Assembly: GCF_013315695.1 (NCBI RefSeq)
Contig: NZ_CP054353.1
Direction: 5' to 3' (one strand)
Origin: Escherichia coli
Lineage (GTDB): Bacteria > Pseudomonadota > Gammaproteobacteria > Enterobacterales > Enterobacteriaceae
DNA: 64,000 bases
Part shown: positions 11,526-31,189 of the stretch, in pieces
Numbering within the stretch: position 1 is the stretch's first letter
Layout of the letters: each line of letters opens with the position of its first letter
Translations under genes and position numbers: made by a program
The notes under the pieces: generated by a model
What the model was told of the DNA's origin: nothing
Database searches by the model: none
What the model saw: only the letters and a program-made list of their open reading frames with translations

Positions 11526-11537
11526 CGGAGACTGAAA

Positions 11538-12371
11538 ATGAACATCGAAAAAAGCAGATTAATTTCTGAGGCCGCCCCTCATCTGAACGCCTCTCTGGGC
11601 ACAATTAACGGTAATGAATTTGCCGCAATTGTCCCGGTTATTCCTGGTCATATCGGTGGGCGTGAAACCAATATTGTTAGCGCAAAAGCGTTACACAAAG
11701 CGTTGGGCGTGGGAAAAGACTTCTCTACATGGATCACTGATCGCATCTCTGAATATGACTTCACCATTGGGCACGATTACTCAGTCCATAAAACAATTTC
11801 CCCAAATTTGGGGAAAAGCCCGAATGGCGCGGCTTACAGCAAGATAAAGCACTCTGGCAGACCCGGTAAAGACTATCTGTTAAGTGTCGGAATGGCGAAA
11901 GAACTGGCAATGATCGAACGCAATGATCAGGGTCGCGCTATCCGCCGTTATTTCATCCAGTGCGAGGAAGAATTACAGCGTAGCGTTCCTGAAATCGCCG
12001 CCCGCTATCGTCGCCAGCTAAAAGCCCGTCTCAGTGCCGCAAACAACTTTAAGCCAATGTGCGATGCGCTGAATATGGCCCGTGCCGAGATGGGTAAAAC
12101 GACGCAGCAACACCACTACACAAACGAGAGCAATATGATTTCTCGTATCGTTCTTGGTGGGCTAACTGCTAAGCAGTGGGCGCGGATAAATGGCTATTCT
12201 GGCGAACCTCGCGACCATATGAACGCAGAACAGCTTGAGCACCTCTCATATCTCGAAAGCACCAATATCACGTTAATTGATATGGGCATGGAATATGAGC
12301 AGCGCAAAGGAGAACTCACCCGCCTGTCGCAACGCTGGCTCGCCAAGCGTCTGGAGGCGGTCCATGTTTAA
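11538..12371 (+). CDS. AntA-type phage antirepressor-like protein
   Basis: 277 aa. The central region SAKALHKALGVGKDFSTWITDRISEYDFTIGHDY...DYLLSVGMAKELAMIERNDQGRAIRRYFIQCE matches the AntA/AntB antirepressor domain as I remember it. Confidence 0.65.
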   Translation: MNIEKSRLISEAAPHLNASLGTINGNEFAAIVPVIPGHIGGRETNIVSAKALHKALGVGKDFSTWITDRISEYDFTIGHDYSVHKTISPNLGKSPNGAAYSKIKHSGRPGKDYLLSVGMAKELAMIERNDQGRAIRRYFIQCEEELQRSVPEIAARYRRQLKARLSAANNFKPMCDALNMARAEMGKTTQQHHYTNESNMISRIVLGGLTAKQWARINGYSGEPRDHMNAEQLEHLSYLESTNITLIDMGMEYEQRKGELTRLSQRWLAKRLEAVHV

Positions 12372-12546
12372 GCCGACAGGAACACCACAACCTCAAAAAC
12401 GCTACAAAGATGCCCACGGAGCACTCGTTACTGTCGAAAGCGTGTCTCACAACCGAGTGACGTTTTATCGCGACGGGTATCAATCGCCATGCGTACAACC
12501 GCTGGCGCGCTTCATGAAGGAGTTCGCGGAGGTTAACAAATGCTAA
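12364..12546 (+). CDS. Small protein, DUF4222-like
   Basis: Internal ATG 12364 of ORF 12277..12546 overlaps the upstream stop. MFKPTGTPQPQKRYKDAHGALVTVESVSHNRVTFYRDGYQSPCVQPLARF resembles the DUF4222 prophage family. Confidence 0.5.
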   Translation: MFKPTGTPQPQKRYKDAHGALVTVESVSHNRVTFYRDGYQSPCVQPLARFMKEFAEVNKC

Positions 12547-13201
12547 CCGTCCAGAAGAAGATATTTTCACTGGCTGGTATGTCACCAAAATCCAGCAATA
12601 TGACAGCAAAGTCTGGCATTAATACAGCAGATACAAGCAAAGTTTATCATTTTCTGGTGGTAGGAGCGGATGCCTTAACTATGTCAGAAATTACGGTCGA
12701 TGGTGTTAGCGTTGAGAAGGTCAGCGGCTGCGCCAGAGAATTTCTGGTCGTAGATGGCTTTCTCTGCTCGCGTAGTGACTCCACAAAAACCTTCGTCCAT
12801 ACGCGCGACGTTAACGAAATGAGCGCGATGTATTGTGCATCTGGTGCTTCCAATACTGAGTTTTCGGAGTCCATAAAAAAGAGCTTGCCGTTATGCGGCA
12901 ACACGGTTTATGGTTATAAGGCACCTCATAAAACGGGTGCCGGGATTGGCGTCCTGAAAATTCTGAAGGCGACATATGACGCGCCGAGCGTCTTTTTTTA
13001 TGTCGTAGGTCTGACTCACCCATTTTTTGGGCGTTGGTGTATAATCCAGCGCCTTTGTCAATCAATGGTGGCTCAGGCGGGGGCTTCTTCGGAAGCGCCG
13101 GTATCCTTCAGAGCCGGTTACGCCAACCCTGTCTGGGCTACCACCAGCGAAATTGGCGTTTCCGGTGGTAGCGTAACCTGCTATCTGAAGGAGGCTGCCA
13201 C
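12540..13201 (+). CDS. 5' two-thirds of a 355-codon open frame, possibly an Ash-family-like protein. The true 3' end is unresolved.
   Basis: ATG 12540 overlaps the upstream stop (ATGCTAA). The frame stays open to 13607. From 13202 onward better-supported genes occupy the DNA, and 13068..13180 looks like structured RNA. Confidence 0.3.
13068..13180 (+). ncRNA. Candidate C4/CI-like antisense immunity RNA
   Basis: Three hairpins lie directly upstream of the icd-like gene. The first is a UUCG-loop stem at 13083..13096. The second is ccgg/ccgg at 13098..13117; its loop tccttcaga (13104..13112) is complementary to tctgaagga (13184..13192) across the icd-like Shine-Dalgarno. The third is a 9-bp stem, 13137..13145 with 13164..13172. 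The ends of the RNA are not defined. Confidence 0.35.
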
Positions 13202-13396
13202 ATGCTGGCTACTACCCCTACCCAAAAACCGCAATTTATCTGGATTATCGCCGCAGTTCGCCGCGATTGCCCGACAATTACCGCCAAAATTCATCATATT
13301 GCTGCCGAGTCTGAACGCGATGCTCGCCGTTCTCTGGTGCGCGATCACGTCTGCTTTTTTGCTGGTCGTATCCGCATGGAGGTGGCACATGATTAA
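13202..13396 (+). CDS. Icd-like (host cell division inhibitor-like) small protein
   Basis: 64 aa starting MLATTPTQKPQFIWIIAAVRRDCPT, recalled as the Icd-like family. A strong SD (gaaggagg) precedes ATG 13202. Confidence 0.6.
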   Translation: MLATTPTQKPQFIWIIAAVRRDCPTITAKIHHIAAESERDARRSLVRDHVCFFAGRIRMEVAHD

Positions 13397-13607
13397 AACC
13401 TACGATGTGCATATGGATCCCCTCGAACGCACAAGCCAGATCATCACACTGACAGAAGTGATTAACGACATTCTGGTGAGCAACTCTCCCTCACGAGACG
13501 AAAGGCTGAAGGCGTTACTCGCGATATTGGATCTCGCCGTTCGTGACGTTCATTTCCTGCTGGAAGGTGGCGAAATGCCAGGAAAAACGGGGGCAACCAA
13601 TGAATAA
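13389..13607 (+). CDS. Hypothetical small protein (72 aa)
   Basis: ATG 13389 overlaps the icd-like stop (ATGATTAA). It starts MIKTYDVHMDPLERTSQIITL. Confidence 0.5.
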   Translation: MIKTYDVHMDPLERTSQIITLTEVINDILVSNSPSRDERLKALLAILDLAVRDVHFLLEGGEMPGKTGATNE

Positions 13608-13794
13608 CTCAATTAATACCCCTCGCCTTACGTCCGCACTTCAATTAATCGAGCAAGCAGCGGCTGTCCTGGTTGCTGTCAGTCTTTCGGCTGAAGAAAT
13701 GGACGCTGCTGATGTCGTGGATGCGATTAAAGCGTGCTCATCTTTGGTTAACGATGCCCGTGCCGAGCTGGTAATTCTTGGGGGTGAAAAATGA
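13600..13794 (+). CDS. Hypothetical small protein (64 aa)
   Basis: Internal ATG 13600 of ORF 13543..13794 overlaps the upstream stop. It starts MNNSINTPRLTSALQLIEQAAA. Confidence 0.5.
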   Translation: MNNSINTPRLTSALQLIEQAAAVLVAVSLSAEEMDAADVVDAIKACSSLVNDARAELVILGGEK

Positions 13795-14054
13795 ATATCA
13801 ACTTAATTTATCGTCATCCGTGTGAGCTGGAAATTGAATCATTGCTGGGGCGTGAAGAGCCATATCCAGACTCATTCACTCCCGCAGATTGCGCGACTGA
13901 ACGGCTTACCAGAGCGCGCACAGGTCTGGTTCATGTGATGAATGAGATTGTTCCCTCGGTGGGAGGGGAACAGGCGACAGTAATCAATAGCTGGCTACAA
14001 AAAGTTACCTCCCTGATAGATATCGGTTTAATCGATGTGGAGAGTGCGAAATGA
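13791..14054 (+). CDS. Hypothetical small protein (87 aa)
   Basis: ATGA start/stop overlap with the upstream gene. It belongs to the coupled operon. Confidence 0.55.
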   Translation: MNINLIYRHPCELEIESLLGREEPYPDSFTPADCATERLTRARTGLVHVMNEIVPSVGGEQATVINSWLQKVTSLIDIGLIDVESAK

Positions 14055-14272
14055 CCAACATCCAGCTCATTGAAGCGCAATGTCGCATCGAACAGGTTCA
14101 GACTGTTTTAGGGTTCTGGCTTGAAGGGGCCAGCCCCAGCAACAGAGACAAGTTAATGATTGGCGCGGTTATGTCACTGCTCAATGGCGTACCAGAAGCT
14201 ATTCAGGAAGCGGACGAATTGTTGGGCAAATATGAGTTACAGAATCATTCAGGCGAGGCGAAACATGAATAA
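14051..14272 (+). CDS. Hypothetical small protein (73 aa)
   Basis: ATGA overlap with the upstream gene. Confidence 0.55.
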   Translation: MTNIQLIEAQCRIEQVQTVLGFWLEGASPSNRDKLMIGAVMSLLNGVPEAIQEADELLGKYELQNHSGEAKHE

Positions 14273-14867
14273 TTTCTTAACTTTCCATGCAGAAGCAACG
14301 CCTGACGGCGTAAACATCATGTACCGCAGCAACGATGGCATGACAGAACGCGTTGAGGCCGTCTCATATATTGATGCCGTAAATCGTCTGGATGCCGGGG
14401 ATTATGACGATAAACCAGATGAAGGTATGTCAATACATCTCGCTATTGCCGATGGCGGCAACCAGGGATATTTCGATTACACATCACAGCATAACGTCAT
14501 TATGTGGAGATGGCTGATCGCAACAGTATTCATGCTGGAAATGAGAGAGGAAAACGGCACTGTCAGCATCATTGATGATACTGGCAATCCTTCCGAAGTG
14601 GCTGTTTATTCCAACGGCATCGTCGCCATGCCGCTGTATCCAGTAGCAGAGCGCCTCGCTATGGCAAACAACATTGAGGGCGCGATGATAGAACGTTTTG
14701 GCATCGAGTCTGGCACAGAACGCGCCATCATTTTCTACAGAGCCATGATGGATGTGGAACAAGGAGCACTGACTCCATTTGGTCGTGAAACGCTTGCTGA
14801 ACTTCACAACAGCTTTATAGCTGAACTGAATGAAAACGGCATGCCAGCGGAACCAGTGACGCACTGA
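14265..14867 (+). CDS. Hypothetical protein (200 aa)
   Basis: ORF track 14160..14867. I use ATG 14265 (MNNFLTFHAEATPDG), which overlaps the upstream stop. Confidence 0.55.
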   Translation: MNNFLTFHAEATPDGVNIMYRSNDGMTERVEAVSYIDAVNRLDAGDYDDKPDEGMSIHLAIADGGNQGYFDYTSQHNVIMWRWLIATVFMLEMREENGTVSIIDDTGNPSEVAVYSNGIVAMPLYPVAERLAMANNIEGAMIERFGIESGTERAIIFYRAMMDVEQGALTPFGRETLAELHNSFIAELNENGMPAEPVTH

Positions 14868-14877
14868 GGATGGAGCC

Positions 14878-15219
14878 ATGATTACTAAAAATTTCCGACT
14901 GAATGCGCTGGCAAATAAGTATGCGTCGGCACTGTATAACCACATTACCTCCACCAGCGGCGGGGACTATTTCATGGTTGATGCGGACGGCGAGGCCGTA
15001 CGTGTGGAAATCGTCAATGGAGTAAAAGGCGTTCGCAGCCTGATCGATAGCTACACACTGGCAGCCATGAAAGTGTTCTACCCGCAGTGGGAAACCGTGG
15101 GGATCGAGCTTCTTGAGCGTTGCGTCACTAAGGACGGATTGACTGACGTCGGGCGTGAGATATGGCAAAGCATGGTTAATGACATGGGCGCAACTGTAGC
15201 GGGAGGTTCTCATGCGTGA
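14878..15219 (+). CDS. Hypothetical protein (113 aa)
   Basis: The SD ggatggag precedes the ATG. Its C-terminal motif DGLTDVGREIWQSMV is shared with both neighbouring genes. Confidence 0.55.
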   Translation: MITKNFRLNALANKYASALYNHITSTSGGDYFMVDADGEAVRVEIVNGVKGVRSLIDSYTLAAMKVFYPQWETVGIELLERCVTKDGLTDVGREIWQSMVNDMGATVAGGSHA

Positions 15220-15583
15220 AAATGCAGAAATGGCGCTTAGCTCCGCAATCGGAGAGCAGGTGGCAAAGATTGCTGGTGCTGTGTGGATTCATAACCTTCA
15301 TTCTACTGGTGAAGAGAAAATGGCAATTCAGACGCCAGAGGGACGCACCATTACTACATCTCTGAAGCCGTCAGATGTTTGTGATCTGATTTGCGCATTC
15401 ATGTACCCAGCAATGAGGACTGTCCACGGCGATAAGTGGAAACTTGCGACAACCGCTGAATTTGATATGTGGCTAAACAATGATGGCATGCTGACTGATT
15501 ACGGAATAACCAAGTGGCAGATGCTGGTTAGCCATATCGCAAACGCTATAGACCACGTGGGGTACGGTGATGCGAAACATTGA
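15212..15583 (+). CDS. Hypothetical protein (123 aa)
   Basis: It overlaps the upstream stop. Its C-terminal motif is DGMLTDYGITKWQMLV. Confidence 0.55.
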   Translation: MRENAEMALSSAIGEQVAKIAGAVWIHNLHSTGEEKMAIQTPEGRTITTSLKPSDVCDLICAFMYPAMRTVHGDKWKLATTAEFDMWLNNDGMLTDYGITKWQMLVSHIANAIDHVGYGDAKH

Positions 15584-18326
15584 TCTTATCCGTCAGGTTA
15601 TCAGTGCGTCTGAAAACAACTGGCCTCATGTGCTGGGCTGCCTGAACATAAATGTCCCTGACTCTCCGCGCCGTCATGCTCCCTGCCCTGCATGTGGGGG
15701 CAAAGATCGATTCCGGTTCGATGACAACGGGCGCGGTAGCTTCATCTGTAATCAGTGCGGCGCTGGTGATGGGCTGGATTTAATTAAACGCGTAAATAAC
15801 TGCGACACAACAGAGGCGGCGCTTCTTGCCGCTGATGTTCTGGGTATTGATTACCGGACAACGGAAACACCAGAAGCCACCAGCCAGAAACGGGAACAAC
15901 TGGAAACCGAGCGCCAGCGACGCGAACAGGAGCGCCTGAAAAGGGCAGAGAAGGACGAACAACAAAGACGGGATACGTTTTCCCGTCAGTTTGATGACAT
16001 GCGCAGAAAGGCTGTAAACGGCAAATCTGATTATCTGGTTGCGAAAGGGGTAGGTGATTTTACATTCCCCGTGTTGCCCGATGGATCTCTGTTGCTGGCG
16101 CTGGTGGATAAATCCGGCGCAGTCACAGCAGCACAGACTATTACATCACATGGTGAAAAAAGACTCCTGACAGGTTCAGCAAAGCGGGGGGCATATCACG
16201 CCATAAACGCGCCAGAAACAACACAGAGCATCTTAATCGCAGAAGGGCTGGCAACGGCATTATCTGCCCATTTAATTCGTCCAGAGGCGCTGACAGTGGC
16301 GGCGATTGATGCCGGGAACCTGTTATATGTCGCCCAGGTACTGCGGGATAAATTTCCTTCAGCACAAATCATCATTGCTGCGGATAACGACCACAGCGAA
16401 GGAAGACAAAACACGGGGAGAATAGCAGCAGAAAAAGCAGCTTTATCTGTTTCTGGATGGGTGGCATTACCCCCGACAGATCACAAAGCAGACTGGAATG
16501 ATTACCACCAAAAACACGGCATTAAATGCGCCACAGAAGCGTTCAATAAGTCAATGTACCAACCACAGGGTAATGGCGTGAAACATGAGCCACAGACCAT
16601 TGAGGGAAGCGATTTTAAGGTTATGGATACCGACCCACTGAAACCAAGAATAGAAAGCCGCGAGGATGGTATTTATTGGGTATCTCCGAGAGCTGACAGC
16701 CAGAGTGGAGAAATCATCAATAACGAAAGCTGGTTATGTTCTCCGTTAAGCGTTATCGGTACTGGCAGAGACGATAAAGACCAGTATCTCATTCTTCGCT
16801 GGCTGTCGTTTGGTTCTGAAACGCCGACAACCGCTGCCATTCCACTGGCTGATATTGGTGAACGTGAAGGATGGCGCACACTTAAAGCTGGTGGGGTAAA
16901 TGTCACGACCAAAAGCAGCCTCAGAGCAATACTGGCAGACTGGCTACAACGCAGTGGCTCTCGTGAATTGTGGCGTGTTGCTCATGCCACTGGCTGGCAA
17001 TGCGGAGCGTACATCATGCCTGATGGGGAAATCATCGGAACACCTGAAAATCCTGTGCTGTTCAGCGGGAGAAGCTCAGCCGCAGCCGGATATACCGTCT
17101 CAGGGAGCGCGAAAAGCTGGCGTGATAACGTGGCGCGTCTGGCCTTTGGTAACTATTCAATGATGACCGGGATCGGCGCAGCACTGGCAGCGCCATTGAT
17201 TGGGCTGGTGGGCGCTGACGGGTTCGGCATTCATTTCTATGAGCAGTCGAGCGCAGGTAAGACCACCACGGCAAACGTGGCGAGCAGCTTATACGGCAAC
17301 CCTGATTTACTGCGGCTGACGTGGTACGGAACCGCGCTGGGGCTGGCAAATGAGGCCGCCGCCCACAATGACGGACTAATGCCGCTTGATGAAGTTGGTC
17401 AGGGCGCTGATCCTGTCAGCGTTTCACAGTCTGCCTATGCGTTATTTAACGGTGTAGGGAAACTGCAAGGCGCTAAAGATGGTGGAAACCGGGATCTAAA
17501 ACGCTGGCGTACAGTGGCAATCAGCACCGGAGAAATGGATTTAGAAACATTTATCGCTACTTCCGGGCGAAAAACCAAAGCCGGGCAACTGGTGCGACTG
17601 CTGAATATTCCGTTGAGTAAAGCAGTACGCTTTCACGATTACCAGAACGGAAAACAGCACGCAGACGCACTGAAAGACGCTTACCAGCATCACCACGGCG
17701 CGTCCGGGCGTGAGTGGATTAAATGGCTGGCAGACCACCAGCAACAGGCTATTAAAACCGTTCGTGACTGCGAAAGCAGATGGAGAAGCCTGATCCCATC
17801 CGATTATGGTGAGCAGGTTCACCGTGTAGCCGCGCGATTTGCCATTCTGGAGGCCGCATTGTTGTTAGGCGAGGTTGTAACAGGCTGGGATGCTCAGACA
17901 TGCCGTGATGCGATACAGCACAGCTATAACGCATGGTTGCGCGAGTTCGGCACAGGTAACAAAGAGCATCAGCAGATTATTGAACAAACGGAGGCATTTC
18001 TTAATGCCTATGGGCTTAGCCGTTTTGCACCATTTCCATACAGCCCGGCAGATTTGCCCATCAAAGATTTAGCCGGATACCGTCAGCGTGGAGAACATGA
18101 CGAAAGCCCAATGATTTTCTACACATTCCCGGCCACATTTGAAAAGGAGATCGCATGTGGTTTCAACGCAAAACAGTTTGCTGAAGTGTTGAAAAAAGCC
18201 GGGATGCTAACCCCACCAAACAGCGGTCGTGGATACCAAAGAAAATCACCACGTATTCAGGGACGACAAATAAACGTTTATGTACTCAATTACCAGCCAG
18301 GAGATTATAACTCATCTGAAGAATGA
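15567..18326 (+). CDS. Primase-helicase (P4 alpha-like: Zn-ribbon, Toprim, DUF927-type NTPase)
   Basis: 919 aa. It has CPACGGKDRFRF...FICNQCG (Zn ribbon), IIAADNDHSEGRQNTG (Toprim acidic motif) and a Walker A-like YEQSSAGKTT. The start could be GTG 15567 or ATG 15570. Confidence 0.9.
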   Translation: MMRNIDLIRQVISASENNWPHVLGCLNINVPDSPRRHAPCPACGGKDRFRFDDNGRGSFICNQCGAGDGLDLIKRVNNCDTTEAALLAADVLGIDYRTTETPEATSQKREQLETERQRREQERLKRAEKDEQQRRDTFSRQFDDMRRKAVNGKSDYLVAKGVGDFTFPVLPDGSLLLALVDKSGAVTAAQTITSHGEKRLLTGSAKRGAYHAINAPETTQSILIAEGLATALSAHLIRPEALTVAAIDAGNLLYVAQVLRDKFPSAQIIIAADNDHSEGRQNTGRIAAEKAALSVSGWVALPPTDHKADWNDYHQKHGIKCATEAFNKSMYQPQGNGVKHEPQTIEGSDFKVMDTDPLKPRIESREDGIYWVSPRADSQSGEIINNESWLCSPLSVIGTGRDDKDQYLILRWLSFGSETPTTAAIPLADIGEREGWRTLKAGGVNVTTKSSLRAILADWLQRSGSRELWRVAHATGWQCGAYIMPDGEIIGTPENPVLFSGRSSAAAGYTVSGSAKSWRDNVARLAFGNYSMMTGIGAALAAPLIGLVGADGFGIHFYEQSSAGKTTTANVASSLYGNPDLLRLTWYGTALGLANEAAAHNDGLMPLDEVGQGADPVSVSQSAYALFNGVGKLQGAKDGGNRDLKRWRTVAISTGEMDLETFIATSGRKTKAGQLVRLLNIPLSKAVRFHDYQNGKQHADALKDAYQHHHGASGREWIKWLADHQQQAIKTVRDCESRWRSLIPSDYGEQVHRVAARFAILEAALLLGEVVTGWDAQTCRDAIQHSYNAWLREFGTGNKEHQQIIEQTEAFLNAYGLSRFAPFPYSPADLPIKDLAGYRQRGEHDESPMIFYTFPATFEKEIACGFNAKQFAEVLKKAGMLTPPNSGRGYQRKSPRIQGRQINVYVLNYQPGDYNSSEE

Positions 18327-18348: not shown

Positions 18349-18455
18349 GGTGTTGGTTCAGTTGGTTCAATTTGTAAAGAGTATTGTTTTATAAGGATTT
18401 TATTCTTTTTATTGAACCAACACTGAACCAACAACACGGTATTTTGAACCAACAC
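18349..18455 (+). repeat. Iteron origin-like structure A
   Basis: Two direct gttggttca units, then atttgtaaaga and an AT-rich spacer, then three inverted units tgaaccaaca. It lies right after the primase-helicase gene. The same architecture occurs at 41538..41682. Confidence 0.6.
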
Positions 18456-18773: not shown

Positions 18774-18807
18774 ATGCCACCAGCTACTGAGCGGTGGCAT
18801 TTTTTTG
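18774..18807 (+). terminator. Rho-independent terminator
   Basis: atgccacc (18774..18781) pairs with ggtggcat (18793..18800). It is followed by ttttttt. Confidence 0.65.
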
Positions 18808-18901
18808 TGCTATTTGTTTCATATTTTGCAATTACGATGATGAATATTGCGATTTGTGAAACTATAATAACTGTTGTTTTATACAGTTCTAAGGGGGCGT
18901 T

Positions 18902-19063
18902 ATGGCTATTTCAGTAAAGCCGGTATTGATAAGTGAGAAGCAAATGGAAGCGATAAAGAAAATTCAGGAAGAGCAGCGTAAAAAATCAGGAATTGGAGTA
19001 GCGCCAACTCTGCATGAAATTGCACGAGGGTTAATAGATAAGGCGCTGGCAGGCTGTATGTGA
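18902..19063 (+). CDS. Small protein (53 aa), possibly a ribbon-helix-helix type
   Basis: Not in the ORF track because it is under 60 aa. A strong SD (aaggggg) lies 5 nt before the ATG. The sequence is MAISVKPVLISEKQMEAIKKIQEEQRKKSGIGVAPTLHEIARGLIDKALAGCM. Confidence 0.4.
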   Translation: MAISVKPVLISEKQMEAIKKIQEEQRKKSGIGVAPTLHEIARGLIDKALAGCM

Positions 19064-19079
19064 AAATGGATGGCATCGC

Positions 19080-19541
19080 ATGGAACTAAAATTTATTGAT
19101 AACCCTGTGCGATTACAGGCCTTTCTTAACGAGCCAGGCAATACCGAAAATATTGTTGAGCCGGGGCACACGTACTACATCAAGCCTGATGCGGTATATC
19201 TCGGCATCTACGAAGGATTAGTGCTGGCTGGCGTTCATGAAGTGCGTAACTTCTGGCATAGCGTTGTTGAATGCCATGCGGTGTACGACCCCGGATTCCG
19301 TGGTGAATATGCACTGCAAGGACATCGATTATTCTGCAAATGGCTTCTCGAAAACTCACCATTCCTTAACAGCATTACCATGGTTCCTGACACCACGAAA
19401 TACGGACGGGCAATTATCCGTTTGCTTGGCGCTACCCGTGTTGGTCATCTTGATGATGCTTATATCAGATGTGGTAAACCCGTCGGCGTAACGCTTTATC
19501 AGTTAACTCGGCAACAATATAAGGAATTCAGCGAATGTTAA
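19080..19541 (+). CDS. P22 gp14-like protein (ejection-protein assembly factor family)
   Basis: 153 aa. The assignment rests on its position directly upstream of the gp7/gp20/gp16-like genes, its size, and a recollection that gp14 belongs to a DUF2824-type family. Confidence 0.45.
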   Translation: MELKFIDNPVRLQAFLNEPGNTENIVEPGHTYYIKPDAVYLGIYEGLVLAGVHEVRNFWHSVVECHAVYDPGFRGEYALQGHRLFCKWLLENSPFLNSITMVPDTTKYGRAIIRLLGATRVGHLDDAYIRCGKPVGVTLYQLTRQQYKEFSEC

Positions 19542-20212
19542 TTACCCATATAGCTTATAAACATCTCAATCGTGCCGTATACGAAAAAGGCGGTGATGGT
19601 GGTGCCTCTAAAGCTCAGGCGAAGGCCCAGCAGCAGGCAATTGATTTGCAGCGCGAGCAGTGGAATACGGTGATGAATAATCTCAAGCCGTATGCAGAAG
19701 TCGGATTGCCTGCTTTACAACAACTACAAGGACTGATGACTCTGGAAGGGCAGAATAAAGCCGCGAATGATTTCTTTGGTTCTGGTTTATATAAAACACA
19801 GGCAGATCAGGCCCGTTATCAGAACCTTGTCTCAGCAGAAGCTACCGGGGGGCTTGGCTCAACAGCTACCAGTAACCAGTTATCTTCCATTGCGCCCATG
19901 CTTTATAACAATTGGCTCAGTGGGCAAATGCAAAATTATGGAAACCTGCTAAATGTCGGGATGAATGCGGCATCAGGGCAGGCAACAGCAGGGCAAAACT
20001 ACGCCAATAATACCGGACAACTCTTGCAGGGGCTTGGCGCTATTCGTGCAGGTCAGGCGCAGCAGCCATCCAGTCTTGCGCGTGGTATTGGTGGGGCGGC
20101 ATCAGGCGCTTTAGCGGGTGCGCAACTTGGTTCCGTTGTTCCGGGTATAGGTAATGTCGCCGGGGCTATTGGTGGTGGGCTTATTGGTCTTGTTGGGGGG
20201 CTTGGATTCTAA
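19535..20212 (+). CDS. P22 gp7-like ejection (DNA transfer) protein
   Basis: 225 aa. It has YEKGGDGGASKAQAKAQQQAIDLQREQW...KPYAEVGLPALQQLQ and a Gly-rich C-terminus, as in podovirus gp7-type DNA transfer proteins. Its start overlaps the upstream stop. Confidence 0.65.
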   Translation: MLITHIAYKHLNRAVYEKGGDGGASKAQAKAQQQAIDLQREQWNTVMNNLKPYAEVGLPALQQLQGLMTLEGQNKAANDFFGSGLYKTQADQARYQNLVSAEATGGLGSTATSNQLSSIAPMLYNNWLSGQMQNYGNLLNVGMNAASGQATAGQNYANNTGQLLQGLGAIRAGQAQQPSSLARGIGGAASGALAGAQLGSVVPGIGNVAGAIGGGLIGLVGGLGF

Positions 20213-21630
20213 TGGCGACATGGCAACTTGGCGGGCTGCCTAGCATGGCACCGCAAAATGATAATGCTCCTCGTTCTTCCGTTCCTCAGCCTGTGCAGTA
20301 TCAGCAGCAGCCAAACGTAGGTTTAATGGCGCTACAGGGGCTAAGAGGCGTTGCTGAGATTAATCAGCAGGCACGTCAACAACAGCGTAAAGCAGAGTTT
20401 CAGAAAGCATATGCCGGGGCTTTTGAGTCTGGAGACAGAAACAAAATGCGCAGTCTTATTTCTGAGTATCCAGAAGAATTTGAAAGCGTTCAGAAAGGGA
20501 TGGGCTTTATTGATGACGACCAGAGAAATTCTATTGGTCATCTTGCGACTAGTGCTCAAATCGCATCTTCGCTCGGAACTGGGGCATTTGGAAAATTCAT
20601 AGCAGATAACGAAGATGAAATGCGTCGTTTGGGAATTTCTCCTGAGTCTGTTGCCGAAATGCATGTTAATGATCCACAGGGATTCCAGCGGCTTGCTGGT
20701 AGTATGGCACTGTTTTCTCTCGGTCATGAGAAGTACTTCGATATCAAAGATCGAATGGAAGGTCGGGATATTGAGCGTGGCAAGTTGGCAGAGACGATCC
20801 GCAGCAATCAAGCCGGAGAAGCACTTCAGGCGAGAGGGCAGGATATTAGCCGAGCAAATGCGTTAACGTCAGCATATGCACCAACAGCCGCAATGCAGAA
20901 TTACAATCAATACGCGCAAATGTTAAAGGCGGATCCAGAGGGGGCTGCGGCATTTGCGGCAGCGGCTGGAATTAATACAAACGCCAAAAAATTAATGAGT
21001 GTTAGAGAAAACGATGATGGCACTGTCACAAAATACTACACAGACGGAAGTGAAGAGCAGGGAAAACTAAACCAGCCAATATCTGGAGATGGGTTTCGTC
21101 CAATAGCTTTGCCAACAGCCCAAAAGATCATGGAAAAGTCGCCAGAAGGGGCTAAAAAAGCTGCTGGATTTGCATACAGAGTTAGGGATGCTCTTGATTC
21201 AATAGATACACTGAAAGACCAGCTTAGCCCACAGCGAGTGGCGATCATTAATAATGCTTTGGGTAATGGGACGCTGGCTAACTTAACGCTCAGCCCAACA
21301 GAGCAGCAATACGTTGTTAATGCTAATGACGCAATAATGGCAATACTCCGTCAGGAAACAGGGGCATCTATCCTACCAGCTGAAATGTCCAAATATTATC
21401 AAATGTATTTCCCTCAGCCTGGTGATTCCACAAAAACCATTGATACCAAGCGTAGGAAGATGGAAAACCAGTTCAATTCGCTGAAAGCTGCTTCTGGTCG
21501 AGCTTATGATGCTTTGCGGGTTATTTCAGCAGTTGACAGAGGAACTTCTTCTTCGTCGCAGACATTGCCGCAATCTGAGCAGGTATCACAGCCAGCAGTA
21601 ATTTTTCTTCACTATGGGGTGATTAGGTAA
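20212..21630 (+). CDS. P22 gp20-like ejection protein; last codons replaced by IS1 sequence
   Basis: 472 aa (P22 gp20 is about 471 aa from memory). TAATG overlap with the gp7-like gene. IS1 starts at 21626. The reconstructed ancestral end is ...HYGVING-stop. Confidence 0.6.
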   Translation: MATWQLGGLPSMAPQNDNAPRSSVPQPVQYQQQPNVGLMALQGLRGVAEINQQARQQQRKAEFQKAYAGAFESGDRNKMRSLISEYPEEFESVQKGMGFIDDDQRNSIGHLATSAQIASSLGTGAFGKFIADNEDEMRRLGISPESVAEMHVNDPQGFQRLAGSMALFSLGHEKYFDIKDRMEGRDIERGKLAETIRSNQAGEALQARGQDISRANALTSAYAPTAAMQNYNQYAQMLKADPEGAAAFAAAAGINTNAKKLMSVRENDDGTVTKYYTDGSEEQGKLNQPISGDGFRPIALPTAQKIMEKSPEGAKKAAGFAYRVRDALDSIDTLKDQLSPQRVAIINNALGNGTLANLTLSPTEQQYVVNANDAIMAILRQETGASILPAEMSKYYQMYFPQPGDSTKTIDTKRRKMENQFNSLKAASGRAYDALRVISAVDRGTSSSSQTLPQSEQVSQPAVIFLHYGVIR

Positions 21631-22338: not shown

Positions 22339-22611
22339 TGGAGCACCTCAAAAACACCATCATACACTAAATCAGTAAGTTGGCAGCATCACCGAATAAA
22401 CGTATCCTCACGATTGCGCCATTCTTCTTACCGATATTCTGACACACATCATTAACTTTCTATTTTACTCTTTTCTCCACCATAAAATCAATAAAAGCAC
22501 TAACAGTAATTATAAATAAAAACAAAGCCAAAAATCTTGGTTCCAAAACTGGTAACAACTAACCAGTTTAAATATACGCATCAAAATCAGATAAACATTT
22601 GAGGTATTGTC

Positions 22612-22854
22612 ATGACAAAAAAACACCTATCACTGTTTTCTCCTTTTATGCTGACAGAAAAAATAAAGCCATGTAATCGTATCGTTATGGCTCCTATGAC
22701 GACCTGGTCAGCTAATCCTGATGGAACCATCTCTGAGCAAAAACTCGAATATTATAAATGTCGCTCACAAAATATTGGTTTAGTAATTACAGGATATACC
22801 TATGTCACGCCAAGGAAATTCAGGCATCGAAAGGAACTGGCTGGTTTCCGTTAA
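22612..22854 (+). pseudogene. N-terminal fragment of an Old Yellow Enzyme-type NADH:flavin oxidoreductase
   Basis: 80-aa ORF, ...LFSPFMLTEKIKPCNRIVMAPMTTWSANPDGTISEQKLEYY..., which is an OYE N-terminal pattern. The frame then collapses and no continuation was found. Confidence 0.5.
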
Positions 22855-23322
22855 TAGATTAAATATCTATTACTCTCCCGAGAGTAAAACTATCAAATCA
22901 ATGAGTAACCGATACAGCCTCACAAATTCTTTCAGATAATTAACCCGTCACTGCGGCACGTTCTCTCGTAAGGCGTGCCTGCAGTGTAATCCAGTATGTG
23001 TCCGGCATAGTTGACGGTTTAATAGAACTCAATTCCTCTCCCAGGTCACCAACAACGATATCTTGTATAACACCCCAGGAGATACAACATTATGATGAGA
23101 TGCGATATGCTCCTCAGCGCCAATCAATGCCAGGGCTGGGCCAGTCTTGAGATCAGACTCATTCCCGAAACTGACTTCAGGCGACATATATCAATGACGT
23201 TGGTGCAATAAAAGATAGCCGATGTAATACATCTATTCAAATTTGTGATACATGTCAAAAAATTGGTTGACCAAACTCGTTATTTATATAAGTGCACTCT
23301 TTTTTAAAGCGAGGAAGTACCA

Positions 23323-23424
23323 ATGAAAGAGAATAAAGTACAGCAAATCAGTCATAAACTGATTAATATCGTTGTTTTTGTCGCAATTGTAGAATACGCC
23401 TATTTATTTCTCCATTTCTATTAA
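23323..23424 (+). CDS. ykgR: Small membrane protein YkgR
   Basis: 33 codons, MKENKVQQISHKLINIVVFVAIVEYAYLFLHFY, with SD gaggaag. Recalled as ykgR, just upstream of ykgM. Confidence 0.6.
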   Translation: MKENKVQQISHKLINIVVFVAIVEYAYLFLHFY

Positions 23425-23759
23425 TAACGGCAATAAACTGTTCACTTCAGTGATATTTAAAATATGCATCCTCTCCCTTTTTTGTAAGTAATTATTATAT
23501 CCGTGGGAGAGGAATATACGCTGTCAGGTAATCAATCAAACTGCGATAAATCATCGGCCAGTAAAGTGGAGATAGCCTCCATTCTCGAAAAATCCATACT
23601 CTCAGCGAAACCATCATCAATCACTCATCCAGGCGTTTATGGGAGCGTAGCCAATGGCTGCTAACAATGCCAGACTTCCCCGTTGCGGAAATTCCACATC
23701 CCACAAATAGTCACAGGGATTGGGTGTTGAAATGATCCGGATGAGCATGTATCTTTATG

Positions 23760-23777
23760 GTTATGTTATAACATAAC
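23760..23777. promoter_or_regulatory. Zur box (perfect 18-bp palindrome GTTATGTTATAACATAAC)
   Basis: It lies 11 bp upstream of the ykgM start. ykgM-ykgO is a known Zur-repressed operon. Confidence 0.65.
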
Positions 23778-23788
23778 AGGTAAAAATG

Positions 23789-24052
23789 ATGAAGCCCAAT
23801 ATCCATCCTGAGTATCGTACTGTGGTGTTCCACGACACCAGTGTTGATGAGTACTTTAAAATCGGCTCGACTATCAAAACAGACCGTGAGATTGAGCTGG
23901 ATGGCGTAACGTATCCGTACGTAACAATTGATGTCTCTTCAAAATCGCACCCGTTCTATACAGGGAAGCTGAGAACAGTGGCATCAGAAGGAAATGTTGC
24001 ACGATTCACCCAACGTTTTGGTCGTTTTGTTAGCACGAAAAAGGGGGCATGA
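23789..24052 (+). CDS. ykgM: Zinc-independent ribosomal protein L31 paralog
   Basis: [32 protein letters not shown]... It lacks the Cys zinc motif. The ORF track starts one Met earlier, at 23786. Confidence 0.93.
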
Positions 24053-24192
24053 TGAAAGTCCTTAACTCTCTGCGTACCGCAAAAGAACGCCATCCAGACT
24101 GTCAGATTGTGAAGCGAAAAGGACGGCTGTATGTGATTTGTAAATCTAATCCACGTTTTAAGGTCGTTCAGGGTCGTAAGAAAAAACGTTGA
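24052..24192 (+). CDS. ykgO: Zinc-independent ribosomal protein L36 paralog
   Basis: 46 codons, [46 protein letters not shown]. The ATG overlaps the ykgM stop. It is too short for the ORF track. Confidence 0.9.
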
Positions 24193-24242
24193 TTTAAAAT
24201 TCGACGAATTAACGATATTTGTCTGATTAATAATCAGACCTG

Positions 24243-24281
24243 ATTAATGTTGGTGTATTTATTACACCAGCATTAATTTTC
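24243..24281 (+). terminator. Terminator after ykgMO
   Basis: attaatgttggtgta pairs with tacaccagcattaat (one G-U pair) and is followed by tttt. A second palindrome, gtctgattaataatcagac, lies at 24221..24239. Confidence 0.5.
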
Positions 24282-25143
24282 CTGGGGATGTATCTTCCTG
24301 TTCATTTAAGGTCAACTGCCTGACGTTTCTCTCCGAATATTCCATTATATTAATGTTGACTTGTTGACCAGCTTCGCCCTGTATGCTGGCATCAACTCTA
24401 TTTTAGACTGAACACGTCACTCAGTTTCCTCCCTTTGCGACGCAGCCTGCATTTACACTCAAACTATTAAGATGATAAATGTGGTAAATCTGTTGGTACT
24501 GGCATAAAAACGTTTACGCCACAGGAACGGCCTGATCCATCGGTAACCCCATCGCCGACGTTCGAGTGCCAGTTAGAGTAACGCGCACAGATGACTGAAT
24601 GCAGTGCCCTGGCAAAGAGGCCATCGTTCCTGTGACAACTGGCAGTCTTCGTTTAACTTCACTTAATTTGGCTCTTAGGGGGCTTACCGGACATGATGAC
24701 GTACTTACACCTGTTTAATTTTTCATCACTTATTGGAGTGAACACCCATAACCATTTTGTGCGGCATGTTAACCCATTAAAACACCTTACTGATTGGCAA
24801 ATCATCTTTAATTATGACTCATGATAGTTTTATATTCTATTTCTTATCATTTAAACTTGTTTTTTTACTAGTCCATTACACAACACATTAAGACTATTCC
24901 TAACACCTCAGGGCAAAGTTCCTGGCTAATATAAAATGCAAGTAAGAATTGAACGTTATATTGCCAATAACCTTATGAAACTGAATGTCTTTTTCTTCTT
25001 ATCAAAAAAGCAATATTTTCATTTTTTGTAAATATTGACTTAACCATGGAATTCATTTTCTGTTCACATATTGACACTCATCAGGAAAAAAACATAAATT
25101 TAAACCTAATCGAAATAATTAAAACTTAGGTAATGACTCCAAC

Positions 25144-25647
25144 TTATTGATAGTGTTTTATGTTCAGATAATGCCCGATGACTTTGTCATGCAGCTCCAC
25201 CGATTTTGAGAACGACAGCGACTTCCGTCCCAGCCGTGCCAGGTGCTGCCTCAGATTCAGGTTATGCCGCTCAATTCGCTGCGTATATCGCTTGCTGATT
25301 ACGTGCAGCTTTCCCTTCAGGCGGGATTCATACAGCGGCCAGCCATCCGTCATCCATATCACCACGTCAAAGGGTGACAGCAGGCTCATAAGACGCCCCA
25401 GCGTCGCCATAGTGCGTTCACCGAATACGTGCGCAACAACCGTCTTCCGGAGCCTGTCATACGCGTAAAACAGCCAGCGCTGGCGCGATTTAGCCCCGAC
25501 ATAGCCCCACTGTTCGTCCATTTCCGCGCAGACGATGACGTCACTGCCCGGCTGTATGCGCGAGGTTACCGACTGCGGCCTGAGTTTTTTAAGTGACGTA
25601 AAATCGTGTTGAGGCCAACGCCCATAATGCGGGCTGTTGCCCGGCAT
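25144..25647 (-). CDS. insB: IS1 InsB' frame
   Basis: Identical 167-aa ORF. Confidence 0.9.
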
Positions 25648-25841
25648 CCAACGCCATTCATGGCCATATCAATGATTTTCTGGTGCGTACCGGGTTGAGA
25701 AGCGGTGTAAGTGAACTGCAGTTGCCATGTTTTACGGCAGTGAGAGCAGAGATAGCGCTGATGTCCGGCGGTGCTTTTGCCGTTACGCACCACCCCGTCA
25801 GTAGCTGAACAGGAGGGACAGCTGATAGAAACAGAAGCCAC
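25566..25841 (-). CDS. insA: IS1 InsA
   Basis: Identical 91-aa ORF. Confidence 0.92.
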
Positions 25842-25896
25842 TGGAGCACCTCAAAAACACCATCATACACTAAATCAGTAAGTTGGCAGCATCACC

Positions 25897-28180
25897 GGAT
25901 GATGGACAGCTACGCATCCGGAAAATACAGCTGGAAGAGAGTGAAGATAACGCCAGTGTCAGCGAACAAACTCGACAGCAACTGATGACTCTGGCCAACG
26001 CCCCGTTCAATGAGGCCCTTACCATCCCCCTGACTGACAACGCGCAGCTGGATCTCAGCTTGCGCCAACTGCTGCTGCAGCTGGTGGTCAAGCGCGAAGC
26101 GCTGGGCACCGTACTACGCTCACGTAGCGAAGACATCGGGCAGTCCAGTGTTAACACCCTCAGCAGTAATCTGAGCTATAACTTCGGCGTCTATAACAAC
26201 CAGTTGCGTAACGGCGGGAGCAACACATCCAGCTATCTGTCGCTGAATAACGTTACTGCACTGCGCGAACATCATGTGGTGCTCGACGGCTCGCTGTACG
26301 GGATCGGTAGCGGTCAACAGGACAGTGAATTATATAAAGCGATGTATGAACGCGATTTTGCCGGTCACCGATTTGCCGGTGGAATGCTCGACACCTGGAA
26401 CTTGCAGTCCTTAGGGCCGATGACCGCCATTTCAGCAGGGAAGATTTACGGCCTTTCCTGGGGAAACCAGGCCAGCTCCACCATCTTCGACAGCAGCCAG
26501 TCAGCCACGCCAGTGATCGCCTTTTTACCGGCGGCGGGCGAAGTACATCTCACCCGTGATGGGCGGTTACTAAGCGTTCAGAACTTCACCATGGGCAATC
26601 ATGAAGTGGATACCCGGGGTCTACCGTACGGTATTTACGATGTGGAAGTTGAGGTCATCGTTAACGGTCGCGTGATTAGCAAACGCACTCAACGGGTCAA
26701 TAAGCTGTTTAGCCGGGGGCGCGGCGTCGGTGCACCACTGGCGTGGCAGATATGGGGCGGTAGCTTTCATATGGATCGCTGGTCGGAAAACGGGAAAAAG
26801 ACGCGACCAGCTAAAGATAGTTGGCTGGCAGGTGCCTCGACCTCCGGCTCACTGAGTACGCTTAGCTGGGCGGCAACGGGATATGGATACGATAATCAGG
26901 CGGTGGGTGAAACCCGTCTGACGCTGCCGCTTGGGGGAGCGATCAACGTTAACCTGCAAAATATGCTGGCCAGTGACAGCTCATGGAGCAACATCGCCAG
27001 CATCAGCGCCACTCTACCGGGAGGCTTTAGTTCGCTGTGGGTTAACCAGGAAAAAACCCGCATTGGCAATCAATTGCGACGTAGCGATGCCGACAACCGT
27101 GCAATCGGCGGCACACTCAACCTGAACTCACTGTGGTCGAAGCTGGGCACATTCAGCATCAGCTACAATGATGACCGCCGTTACAACAGCCATTATTACA
27201 CGGCAGATTACTATCAAAGTGTCTACAGCGGTACCTTTGGTACGCTTGGCCTGCGGGCCGGTATTCAGCGCTATAACAACGGCGACAGCAGCGCCAATAC
27301 AGGAAAATATATCGCTCTCGATCTCTCGCTACCACTGGGCAACTGGTTTAGCGCAGGGATGACCCATCAAAACGGCTACACCATGGCAAACCTGTCAGCA
27401 CGCAAACAGTTTGATGAAGGGACCATTCGCACTGTTGGTGCCAATCTGTCACGAGCCATCTCCGGCGATACCGGTGATGACAAAACTCTCAGTGGTGGGG
27501 CGTATGCACAGTTCGACGCTCGTTACGCCAGCGGAACGCTGAACGTCAATAGCGCGGCGGACGGCTACATCAATACTAATTTGACCGCCAACGGCAGCGT
27601 CGGCTGGCAGGGTAAAAACATCGCTGCCAGCGGGCGGACCGATGGCAACGCTGGGGTGATATTCGACACTGGCCTGGAGAACGATGGTCAGATCAGCGCC
27701 AAAATCAACGGGCGGATTTTCCCGCTTAACGGCAAGCGTAACTATCTCCCGCTCTCTCCCTATGGAAGATATGAGGTGGAGTTACAGAACAGCAAAAACT
27801 CACTCGACAGTTACGATATCGTCAGCGGTCGCAAAAGTCATCTGACTCTCTATCCAGGCAATGTCGCTGTCATTGAGCCAGAGGTGAAGCAGATGGTTAC
27901 CGTCTCCGGTCGTATCCGTGCGGAAGACGGCACACTGCTGGCTAACGCACGGATTAACAACCATATCGGCCGAACCCGAACCGATGAAAACGGCGAGTTT
28001 GTCATGGACGTGGATAAGAAATACCCCACTATCGATTTTCGCTACAGTGGCAATAAAACCTGCGAAGTGGCACTGGAACTCAACCAGGCGCGCGGTGCCG
28101 TCTGGGTCGGTGATGTGGTCTGCAGCGGCCTCTCATCGTGGGCGGCGGTGACGCAGACAGGAGAAGAGAATGAGAGTTAA
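25897..28180 (+). pseudogene. ecpC: E. coli common pilus usher EcpC, 5'-truncated by IS1
   Basis: The first codons of ORF 25883..28180 are IS1 sequence. The remainder (...[20 protein letters not shown]... to the C-terminus) is followed by ecpD and ecpE. No ecpR, ecpA or ecpB is present. Confidence 0.85.
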
Positions 28181-31134: not shown

Positions 31135-31155
31135 ATATGCAATAATTAATTGCAC

Positions 31156-31189
31156 TGCCCCGCCAGCTATAATCGCGGGGCCTCGTTTT
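31156..31189 (+). terminator. Possible terminator after ykgJ
   Basis: gccccgc (31156..31162) pairs with gcggggc (31174..31180). The sequence ctcgttttt follows. Confidence 0.45.

Follow-up and report, generated by a model that had tools for sequence, protein, structure and literature searches.

A disrupted EcCIMP1-type island of Escherichia coli carries a P22-type ejection-protein block that may serve satellite transfer

A P22-type ejection block in an island at thrW

The window analysed here, a stretch of 64,000 nucleotides of Escherichia coli DNA (NCBI RefSeq assembly GCF_013315695.1, contig NZ_CP054353.1), holds an island integrated in the tRNA gene thrW, between proA and yagU, and within the island lie relatives of the phage P22 ejection-protein genes (Table 1). 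A sequence-only reading of the window had singled out four open reading frames (ORFs) and likened them to P22 genes 14, 7, 20 and 16. All four are present where it placed them and on the strands it gave (153, 225, 472 and 701 amino acids, aa), and Pfam and PHROG profile searches matched each of them to its P22 counterpart. The gp14-, gp7- and gp20-like proteins fall within the P22 ejection families with Pfam scores of 207, 244 and 197 bits against cut-offs of 25-30. By BLASTP, identities to the P22 proteins themselves were 23% (gp14), 56% (gp7), 38% (gp20) and 30% (gp16).

The arrangement is that of the end of the P22 late operon: the gene order is the same, successive genes are coupled through their start and stop codons, and a SieA-like gene lies on the opposite strand directly after gp16, as sieA does after P22 gene 16. 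This fifth member had escaped the sequence-only reading, which described a set of four ejection-type genes. The P22 proteins measure 151, 229, 471 and 609 aa, compared with 153, 225, 473 (native length) and 701 aa here; the earlier reading had given the order and the last three sizes correctly, but gp14 as about 161 aa. The block differs from P22 in its low amino-acid identity (only 23-56%), in lacking genes 26, 10, 4, 5, 8, 1, 2 and 3 upstream and immI, gene 9 and gtr downstream, and in sitting within a primase-based replicon. It is a complete 14-7-20-16-sieA block, a copy of the last part of a late operon of the P22 kind.

No coat, portal, scaffold, terminase, needle or tailspike gene is found across the 64-kb window in the PGAP annotation, in keeping with the earlier reading; this annotation was taken from the near-identical record NZ_LR898874.1 (E. 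coli MSB1_4I; 100% identity over the 3.3 kb queried). Two genuine P22-like prophages (L087 and L088) served as reference for the genes missing around the cassette, and no terminase, portal, scaffold, coat, gp4, gp10, gp26 or tailspike gene is annotated beside genes 14-16 in the window or in the uninverted relative NZ_OX442407.1 (L001). Besides the cassette, the sole virion-type annotation is an unrelated 'baseplate protein' remnant (34111-34824).

The backbone of integrase, AlpA, primase and thrW tRNA was borne out by Pfam and ARAGORN and is that of a phage-inducible chromosomal island (PICI). An 11-bp att repeat bounds the element, at 8843 in thrW and, inverted, at 39513. Reconstructed without IS1, the element integrated in thrW measures 19,078 bp, within the 10-20 kb of such islands, with int at the att end (at 9025), AlpA downstream of int, and a primase-replicase gene adjoining a presumed, iteron-bearing origin. 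PHROG matches of the small backbone ORFs (11094..15583) are to families of unknown function. Classical PICIs carry no structural or lysis genes, whereas four virion-protein homologues are present here.

Table 1. Features of the island and its surroundings in the window
Feature	Position	Strand	Evidence or remark
proA	7416-8669		upstream of thrW tRNA
tRNA-Thr(CGT), thrW, integration site	8784..8859	+	ARAGORN
attL core TCCTATTATCG	starts 8843		within thrW; core identical to that published for EcCIMP1
Tyrosine integrase, P4-type arm-binding domain	9025..10239	+	Pfam Arm-DNA-bind_3, Phage_int_M, Phage_integrase; 42% identity to P4 Int
AlpA-family regulator	10891..11094	+	Pfam Phage_AlpA 7.4e-20; WP accession shared with MP1
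Backbone genes: hypothetical, AntA/AntB antirepressor, DUF4222, Ash-family, six small ORFs	11094..15583	+	Pfam AntA, Phage_ASH; PGAP names
AntA/AntB antirepressor	11538-12371	+	Pfam AntA
DUF4222 gene	12364-12546	+	PGAP name
Ash-family gene with Icd-like part	12540-13607	+	Pfam Phage_ASH; 42% similarity to P4 cI/icd region
Primase-replicase, 919 aa (Zn-ribbon primase, Toprim, DUF927)	15567..18326	+	Pfam Zn_Ribbon_Prim, Toprim_3, DUF927; phrog_1139 2.2e-178
Iteron cluster 1, presumed origin	18352..18453		GTTGGTTCA: 2 direct and 3 inverted copies
Terminator-like hairpin, GC-rich with T-run	18783..18808	+	about 95 nt upstream of the 53-aa ORF
Conserved 53-aa ORF preceding the DNA-delivery module	18902..19063	+	homologues in 31 related loci, 43-85% identity
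gp14-like (DUF2824), ejection-protein/head assembly factor, 153 aa	19080..19541	+	Pfam DUF2824 1.5e-61; phrog_651 1e-66
gp7-like ejection protein, 225 aa	19535..20212	+	Pfam P22_gp7 1.9e-72
gp20-like ejection protein, 472 aa (native 473)	20212..21630	+	Pfam Inj_translocase 3.3e-58; phrog_917 4.6e-110
IS1a, immediately 5' of gp16 start codon	21626..22393	-	target duplication GGGTGATTA
Inverted segment, 23,414 bp: chromosomal genes, IS1b, right arm of the element	22394..45807		target-duplication halves swapped; gene order compared with L001 and MP1
IS1b	25129-25896
attR core TCCTATTATC	39513..39523	-	inverted relative to attL in the window copy
Right-arm accessory genes	39724..41503	mixed	PGAP; 99.7% identity to EcCIMP1 right arm
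Right-arm hypothetical	39724-40083	+	PGAP
pRiA4b ORF-3 family gene	40076-40618	-	PGAP
61-aa ORF	40739-40924	-	PGAP
PerC-family regulator	41222-41503	-	PGAP
Iteron cluster 2, second cis site comparable to P4 crr	41540..41678		GTTGGTTCA: 5 direct and 3 inverted copies
SieA-like inner-membrane protein, 204 aa	43059..43673	+	opposite strand to gp16, directly after gp16
gp16-like ejection protein, 701 aa, ORF intact	43693..45798	-	phrog_770 'DNA transfer protein' 3.6e-159, 532 bits
IS1c, partner of IS1a in the inversion	45808..46575	+	1 mismatch to IS1a
Fourth IS1, cut by window end	63495-64000

The island belongs to the EcCIMP1 family

A satellite of a P22-type helper was one of the two explanations offered by the sequence-only reading, which knew of no described family of this kind. 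As to the nature of the element it was right, but the family had been published in 2025. EcCIMP1, a PICI of E. coli MP1 (Pick, Stadel, Raivio, ISME J 2025; PMC11773190), measures 19,963 bp and resides in thrW with the att core TCCTATTATC; its excision and circularisation depend on the P22-like podophage Kapi1, which induces the element through AlpA. The island requires its own integrase as well as AlpA, the latter shown experimentally to be the master regulator. Kapi1 transduces it at a low frequency (about 5e3 particles per ml), it raises the superinfection immunity of Kapi1 lysogens, and it was scored by its authors as a type C PICI (PMC11773190). The same authors saw 'DNA transfer' and DUF2824 similarities in these genes and suggested that they act in packaging; the complete ejection set was not recognised (PMC11773190).

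The reconstructed element aligns with EcCIMP1 at 98% nucleotide (nt) identity over 9.7 kb, from int into the N-terminal part of gp20, and at 99.7% over 2.1 kb, from the PerC arm to attR, and several of their proteins have identical WP accessions. Both lie in thrW between proA and yagU with the same att core and the same gene order from int to gp20; gp14 and gp7 are 98-99% identical, and capsid and terminase genes are absent from both. By element and gene identity, the locus is almost certainly an EcCIMP1-type PICI, a damaged further member of a family already published. Its virion genes depart from the classical PICI definition, not from this family, since the type element has them too.

The two islands differ in the C-terminal part of gp20, the whole of gp16 and the gene that follows, which belong to a different allele; the rest of gp20, most of gp16 and the following gene could not be aligned by megablast. 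EcCIMP1 has a gp16 of 906 aa with an SLT domain and then a 232-aa putative lipoprotein, whereas the window has a gp16 of 701 aa and then the opposite-strand SieA-like gene. A further difference is that the window copy is split by IS1 and an inversion. EcCIMP1 is also unevenly related to its helper: gp14 and gp7 are 83% and 57% identical to those of Kapi1, compared with 26% for gp20 and 24% for gp16. The window gp14 shares 84% of its residues with Kapi1_055, and gp7 57% with Kapi1_056.

The label 'P4-type' fits the element in part. Like P4, it has an integrase of that type, a related primase N-domain, an AlpA/Vis-type regulator, Ash-family and Icd-like genes, and two iteron clusters resembling ori and crr. 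When all P4 proteins were compared with the reconstructed element by tblastn, they matched only int (42%), the N-domain of alpha (32%) and the cI/icd region (42%). Residues 5-339 of alpha align with the primase at 32%, whereas the helicase part, here of the DUF927 type, does not align, and the relation to alpha is confined to the N-terminal 339 aa. The P4 genes sid, delta, psu and epsilon were not found in the reconstructed element by tblastn, nor was there a PHROG or Pfam match to Psu or Sid. The helpers differ as well, being a P22-like podovirus for the EcCIMP1 type and P2 for P4.

The block is widespread, conserved and mosaic

The uninterrupted block, from the 53-aa gene to gp16 at a coverage of at least 80%, is present in 179 of 5,426 complete E. 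coli genomes, so that the ORFs stay intact across many strains, as the sequence-only reading had asked. In NZ_OX442407.1 the order is thrW, int, other genes, primase, 53-aa ORF, gp14, gp7, an intact 473-aa gp20, gp16, the SieA-like gene, AbiD, a hypothetical gene, PerC and the core gene paoD. Leclercia adecarboxylata carries an intact, coupled gp14-7-20-16 set at 82-88% aa identity together with a related primase and an integrase that is 27% identical. Variants exist within E. coli: strain MS1737 (L006) has only gp20, gp16 and the SieA-like gene, without gp14 or gp7, and in enterotoxigenic E. coli H10407 (L007) a DUF5906 replicase replaces the Toprim/DUF927 primase and a 131-aa membrane protein follows gp16. 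Between the SieA-like gene and the second iteron cluster lies a variable cargo slot; in NZ_OX442407.1 it holds the AbiD gene, matched by PADLOC (L001:20951-21928, +), and in the window copy other small ORFs.

These occurrences bear on the other explanation of the sequence-only reading, in which a P4-like island and a P22-like prophage, each with thrW as its site, were fused once by a deletion. Prophage HS1 of strain HS shows that E. coli thrW does serve P22-like phages as an integration site, and the block keeps the P22 gene order including sieA. A single deletion would nevertheless have to be squared with an architecture that is contiguous in 179 E. coli genomes and recurs in Leclercia, and with a type element that is mobile and whose sequenced att junctions enclose the cassette. 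Moreover, the island continues past the cassette with a second iteron cluster and the PerC arm before attR is reached, and no immI, tailspike or gtr gene follows gp16 and sieA. We reject this account for the locus; it survives only for the ancient origin of the block.

Pairwise ratios of nonsynonymous to synonymous divergence (dN/dS) among satellite copies were 0.07-0.17 for gp14 (two comparisons with at least 5 substitutions), 0.18-0.33 for gp20 and 0.09-0.22 for gp16, next to about 0.1 for the primase; taken together, gp14, gp7, gp20 and gp16 lie at about 0.09-0.30, similar to the primase. These values, well below 1, rest on few substitutions. The synonymous divergence (dS) of gp20 was 0.07-0.40 compared with 0.01-0.02 for the primase, an 8- to 20-fold excess which indicates imported alleles.

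Where do these alleles come from? None of 50,697 phage records contained the whole cassette, which matched phages in mosaic patches only. At the nt level, gp14 is 81% identical to both Kapi1 and phage Louie. For gp16 the best patches are with Sf6-type phages over the first 170 nt (96%) and with phage N7 over the remainder (68%). A genuine P22-like prophage at argW of E. coli SF-468 matches most of gp16 at 93% nt identity and has different gp14, gp7 and gp20 genes of its own. Of two hits in the search for a P22-like prophage with the same gp16 allele, one (H155) was recognised as a copy of the satellite that had undergone deletion, and the other (H156) is a genuine prophage with gp16 only in common. 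Because gp14 lies near Kapi1, gp16 lies near the SF-468 prophage and gp20 has a high dS, the cassette appears to exchange segments with the gene pool of P22-like phages on a continuing basis.

The patches of 81-96% nt identity to P22-like phages could also mean that the cassette acts mainly as DNA, a homology handle or pac-like signal for co-packaging or recombination with helper concatemers, and a packaging role was proposed from gene position by the EcCIMP1 authors (PMC11773190). Yet the pac site of P22 lies in gene 3 and not in genes 14-16, and over most of the cassette no phage in the collection, the helper included, reaches 70% nt identity, with gp20 and gp16 at 24-26% aa identity. Such a role would not preserve four reading frames either, and we consider it very improbable.

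A SieA-like fifth gene

The 204-aa product of the gene after gp16 bears the PGAP label hypothetical. It is a multi-pass membrane protein with four or more hydrophobic segments, and we regard it as a divergent SieA homologue by its position, strand and motif. By BLASTP it is 29% identical to P22 SieA over 108 aa (E=2.5e-6) and 34% identical over 118 aa (E=2e-9) to the SieA of prophage HS1, a type-B protein whose function has been tested. It shares the motif NRYPGEAR with HS1 SieA, where NRYPGEARRARK aligns with NRYPGEARKFNK, and the conserved cytoplasmic motif of SieA is FxRYPxEAxxFNK (PMC10883804). The PHROG match to SieA is weak (phrog_7745, 4.4e-4), and no Pfam family was matched. Among complete E. 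coli genomes, 102 carry the allele at an identity of at least 99%. The gene probably protects the resident cell against P22-like phages.

In EcCIMP1 the sieA position (MP1, L003:13632-14330, -) is taken by a different gene, for the 232-aa protein with a lipoprotein-type signal (LLAGC). This putative lipoprotein might be responsible for the superinfection immunity, for which the EcCIMP1 authors could not pinpoint a gene. PADLOC gave no match for the accessory genes of the window, the SieA-like protein or the MP1 putative lipoprotein.

Might the whole block then be a weapon, its ejection and SieA-like proteins spoiling P22-like virions or blocking the entry of superinfecting DNA? Satellites commonly hinder their helpers, the SieA-like gene is part of the block in the window subtype, and AbiD occupies the neighbouring slot in NZ_OX442407.1. 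EcCIMP1 raises the immunity of Kapi1 lysogens, PADLOC and DefenseFinder having found no gene responsible, and in P22 mismatched gp16/gp20 pairs yield non-infectious particles (PMC10883804). On the other hand, EcCIMP1 did not reduce Kapi1 titres after induction and had no effect on the infection of non-lysogens (PMC11773190), a full co-adapted set that includes the assembly factor gp14 exceeds the needs of a poison, and in the satellites of Vibrio cholerae discussed below such proteins serve satellite transfer. We therefore regard interference as unlikely, while granting it some weight.

Origin and control region upstream of the cassette

The iteron GTTGGTTCA occurs 13 times in the window, compared with 0.54 copies expected, and its copies form two clusters. 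These flank the cassette once the inversion is undone, as the sequence-only reading had proposed, and do so in NZ_OX442407.1 as it stands, where arms of 55 nt, 93% complementary, surround an 8.5-kb segment with the cassette and accessory genes. In P4, too, replication requires iterons at two places, annotated as ori and crr. The cassette is part of the replicon and does not lie beside it; the att repeats, which enclose it independently of the iterons, place it inside the element. Beyond about 25 kb the PGAP coordinates of NZ_LR898874.1 are offset from the window ORFs by 1, 2 and then 11 nt, and the two are not identical base for base. The last shift, 9 nt in size, arises in the interval from the PerC gene (41222-41503) to gp16 (43693), where the array of 9-nt iterons also lies, and the two records may differ by one iteron copy.

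Because the hairpin at 18783-18808 precedes the 53-aa ORF, the cassette appears to form a transcription unit separate from the primase. A promoter scan found no sigma-70 consensus in the 800-nt spacer upstream of the cassette. A composite motif, GCGTGACGTT followed about 40 nt on by AGTTTTnnGAGTCCATAAAAAA, recurs between origin and cassette and inside the ash/icd region (window 18520-18560 and 18725-18750; NZ_OX442407.1, L001, 8486-8581, 14231-14300 and 14436-14457), and may be a shared regulatory site. The 53-aa ORF itself has no Pfam or PHROG match; its strand-helix-helix sequence pattern, typical of ribbon-helix-helix repressors, suggests that fold.

IS1 copies have disabled the window element

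The window contains three complete IS1 copies and one partial copy; IS1a and IS1b are identical, and IS1c differs by one base. The sequence-only reading had inferred an inversion that separates the fourth gene from the third, and the target duplications confirm it. The 9-bp duplication GGGTGATTA stands left of IS1a and, reverse-complemented, left of IS1c, and a second one, GAATAAACG, stands right of IS1a and recurs right of IS1c. The halves are thus swapped: IS1 had inserted twice, with a separate target duplication each time, and recombination between the two copies inverted 23,414 bp.

With the inversion undone, the junction reads GGGTGATTA followed directly by ATGGCTAA (in longer form, CACTATGGGGTGATTA followed by ATGGCTAAAGC). 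Here gp20 ends in HYGVING and its stop codon, and the gp16 start codon ATG lies inside the 8-nt overlap ATGGCTAA. The overlap described earlier is therefore real, but the IS1 sits immediately 5' of it and not inside. The cassette had also been called intact, which is true of the gp14, gp7 and gp16 frames. The gp20 gene, however, has lost its last two residues to IS1 (473 to 472 aa) and is called a pseudogene by PGAP, and gp16 is cut off from the gp14-7-20 operon; together with sieA and attR it was moved by 24 kb and turned around. The window copy is thereby disabled, and since attL and attR are now inverted relative to each other, it should not excise unless the inversion reverts. The published attL and attR of EcCIMP1 are direct repeats (PMC11773190).

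Outside the island, IS1b abuts a truncated ecpC, which implies that the ecp fimbrial operon of this strain has lost ecpR, ecpA, ecpB and the start of ecpC, and ykgR, ykgM and ykgO have been moved next to IS1b. Beside yagU, positions 32695-37119 hold a second, unrelated island remnant with a 444-aa integrase, the 'phage baseplate protein' gene, a truncated ORF and IS2; the matching position in MP1 holds the vat/MarR island.

Delivery proteins occupy the same slot in other genera

A scan of one genome per species across Enterobacterales returned 77 loci with relatives of the primase, whose flanks contain no coat, portal or terminase gene of the P22 or Kapi1 type. The 53-aa ORF is kept in 31 of the 77 at 43-85% identity, a conservation across genera that exceeds everything downstream of it, and a virion DNA-delivery gene follows within about 20 nt. 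In 28 of 33 related loci from other genera, the slot after this ORF holds a recognised virion DNA-delivery protein, which belongs to one of several types. Tape measure proteins (TMPs), internal virion transglycosylases and hubs play in other morphotypes a penetration role that corresponds to that of the P22 ejection proteins.

P22-type ejection proteins occur in three of these loci, among them a 1,425-aa gp20-gp16-like fusion in Pectobacterium, so that this type is now found in Escherichia, Leclercia and Pectobacterium. TMPs fill the slot in 13 of the 25 further loci, most of them preceded by a 108-aa ORF with no Pfam family; full-length TMPs with this partner were found in Pantoea, Erwinia, Klebsiella, Chimaeribacter, Lonsdalea, Pluralibacter and others, and the Chimaeribacter protein matches the TMP of Erwinia phage Midgardsormr38 from end to end at 59% identity. 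Five loci, in Klebsiella, Leclercia and Pectobacterium, have SLT-domain proteins of about 840-890 aa related to the internal virion proteins of epsilon15-group podophages; three of the five have a 565-aa partner, and one protein ends at a contig edge. The remaining loci hold 'lytic tail protein'/SLT proteins of about 600 aa (three loci), TMP-like proteins matching a 'tail injection transglycosylase' family (three) and a baseplate hub (one, in Rosenbergiella).

The related elements adjoin tRNA-Thr or tRNA-Arg genes. In Lonsdalea, the only one delimited within the 10-kb flanks, a 19-bp att repeat encloses the TMP-like gene. No other recognised tail gene stood beside the TMP gene in the three loci checked, although for the relatives in general the absence of other virion genes is not exhaustively established. 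A delivery-gene slot shared by the family was not found described in the searchable literature, most subscription journals lying outside the search. It is a tentative proposal, to which we give somewhat less than an even chance, that a PICI-like clade of Enterobacterales, defined by the shared primase, the 53-aa gene and integration at tRNA-Thr or tRNA-Arg, systematically carries a helper-matched DNA-delivery device and no other detected virion gene.

This slot also bears on the idea that the block is inert cargo, captured once from a P22-like phage and kept by linkage to useful genes (sieA-like, AbiD, PerC). Pseudogenised or deleted copies exist, the window copy among them, most species-level primase relatives lack P22-type genes, and EcCIMP1 transduction is very inefficient. 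Chance capture, however, does not predict analogous genes (TMP, internal virion proteins, hub) in the same slot elsewhere. Nor does it sit well with ORFs whose frames and translational coupling are preserved in Leclercia as well as in 179 E. coli genomes, with a dN/dS well below 1, or with the repeated replacement of whole alleles with reading frames kept. We think inert cargo quite improbable.

How might the ejection proteins be used?

We lean towards the following reading of the locus as a whole, an EcCIMP1-type island with a complete ejection block that specifies a conduit installed in helper-built particles. When the helper goes lytic, the satellite would express its own ejection proteins, and gp14 would help to load them into helper-built procapsids. 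Particles with satellite DNA would then deliver it through a satellite-specified trans-envelope conduit, of which the gp20/gp16 pair would be the key part. The likely benefit would be entry into recipients that exclude the helper's conduit, such as lysogens with SieA-type blocks, or efficient transfer in general. For the functional part of this reading, that the ejection proteins are used in satellite transfer, we see the chances as evenly balanced.

Several observations are consistent with such a use. In P22, gp7, gp20 and gp16 exit the virion ahead of the DNA and form a conduit across the cell envelope; gp20 and gp16 have to match each other, and mutations that escape SieA lie in their C-terminal regions (PMC10883804). 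That this pair may be critical in the satellites is suggested by the MS1737 variant, which keeps only gp20, gp16 and the SieA-like gene, by the gp20-gp16-like fusion in Pectobacterium, and by the low identity of the EcCIMP1 pair to that of its helper.

The closest parallel is offered by the PLE satellites (PLEs) of V. cholerae, which encode their own TMP, tail assembly chaperone and baseplate hub; in satellite particles these take the place of the helper's proteins, and transfer is efficient only with them (bioRxiv 10.1101/2025.01.29.635557). The TMP and hub that PLEs put into stolen tails are a precedent for the re-equipping role proposed here. Like the EcCIMP1 type, PLEs have no capsid or tail genes of their own beyond a DNA-delivery core and a chaperone. 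They differ in backbone, which is unrelated, in host and in helper (the myovirus ICP1), and in supplying tail components, not podovirus ejection proteins; incorporation into particles has been shown for PLEs, whereas for the EcCIMP1 type gene content suggests it. A later preprint states that TMPs are otherwise not found in satellites. The cf-PICIs and the mycobacterial EPIPs also have some virion proteins of their own, in EPIPs including a TMP. In contrast to the EcCIMP1 family, with DNA-delivery proteins only, these satellites encode capsid, portal or adaptor and steal tails.

A number of points weigh against a role in transfer. That the ejection proteins of EcCIMP1-type islands are expressed, packaged and needed is something we infer from their genes. 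Transduction of EcCIMP1 yields only about 5e3 particles per ml, and a Kapi1-like prophage is present in only 2 of 21 EcCIMP1 carrier strains (PMC11773190). Unless a mechanism sorts them, and none is known, ejection proteins from a single cell would end up in both helper and satellite capsids. The bypass of SieA is argued from P22 genetics, and P22 SieA excludes P22 itself. Part of the divergence behind the dN/dS values may predate capture from phages. Decay is also seen: gp20 of H10407 has an internal stop and is a pseudogene, one satellite copy has lost the primase and gp14-gp20, and the window copy is split by IS1.

Implications

Beyond the published account of EcCIMP1, the analysis adds the full 14-7-20-16-sieA identification, the maintenance of the block and its exchange with phages, and the occurrence of other delivery proteins in the same slot elsewhere. 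The locus explains what has repeatedly looked like a 'partial P22 prophage' at thrW, a feature of about 3% of complete E. coli genomes, and offers candidates for the unexplained superinfection immunity of EcCIMP1. Satellites are thought to steal complete virions or tails; a family that supplies only the proteins of the DNA path would point to DNA entry as a contested step, and this is the step at which prophage exclusion systems such as SieA act. DNA-delivery swapping has so far been shown only for the TMP of the Vibrio PLEs. If the pattern across Enterobacterales is true, the strategy of exchanging the injection apparatus would be common to satellites of podo-, sipho- and myovirus helpers, and could allow satellites to escape entry exclusion such as that by SieA.

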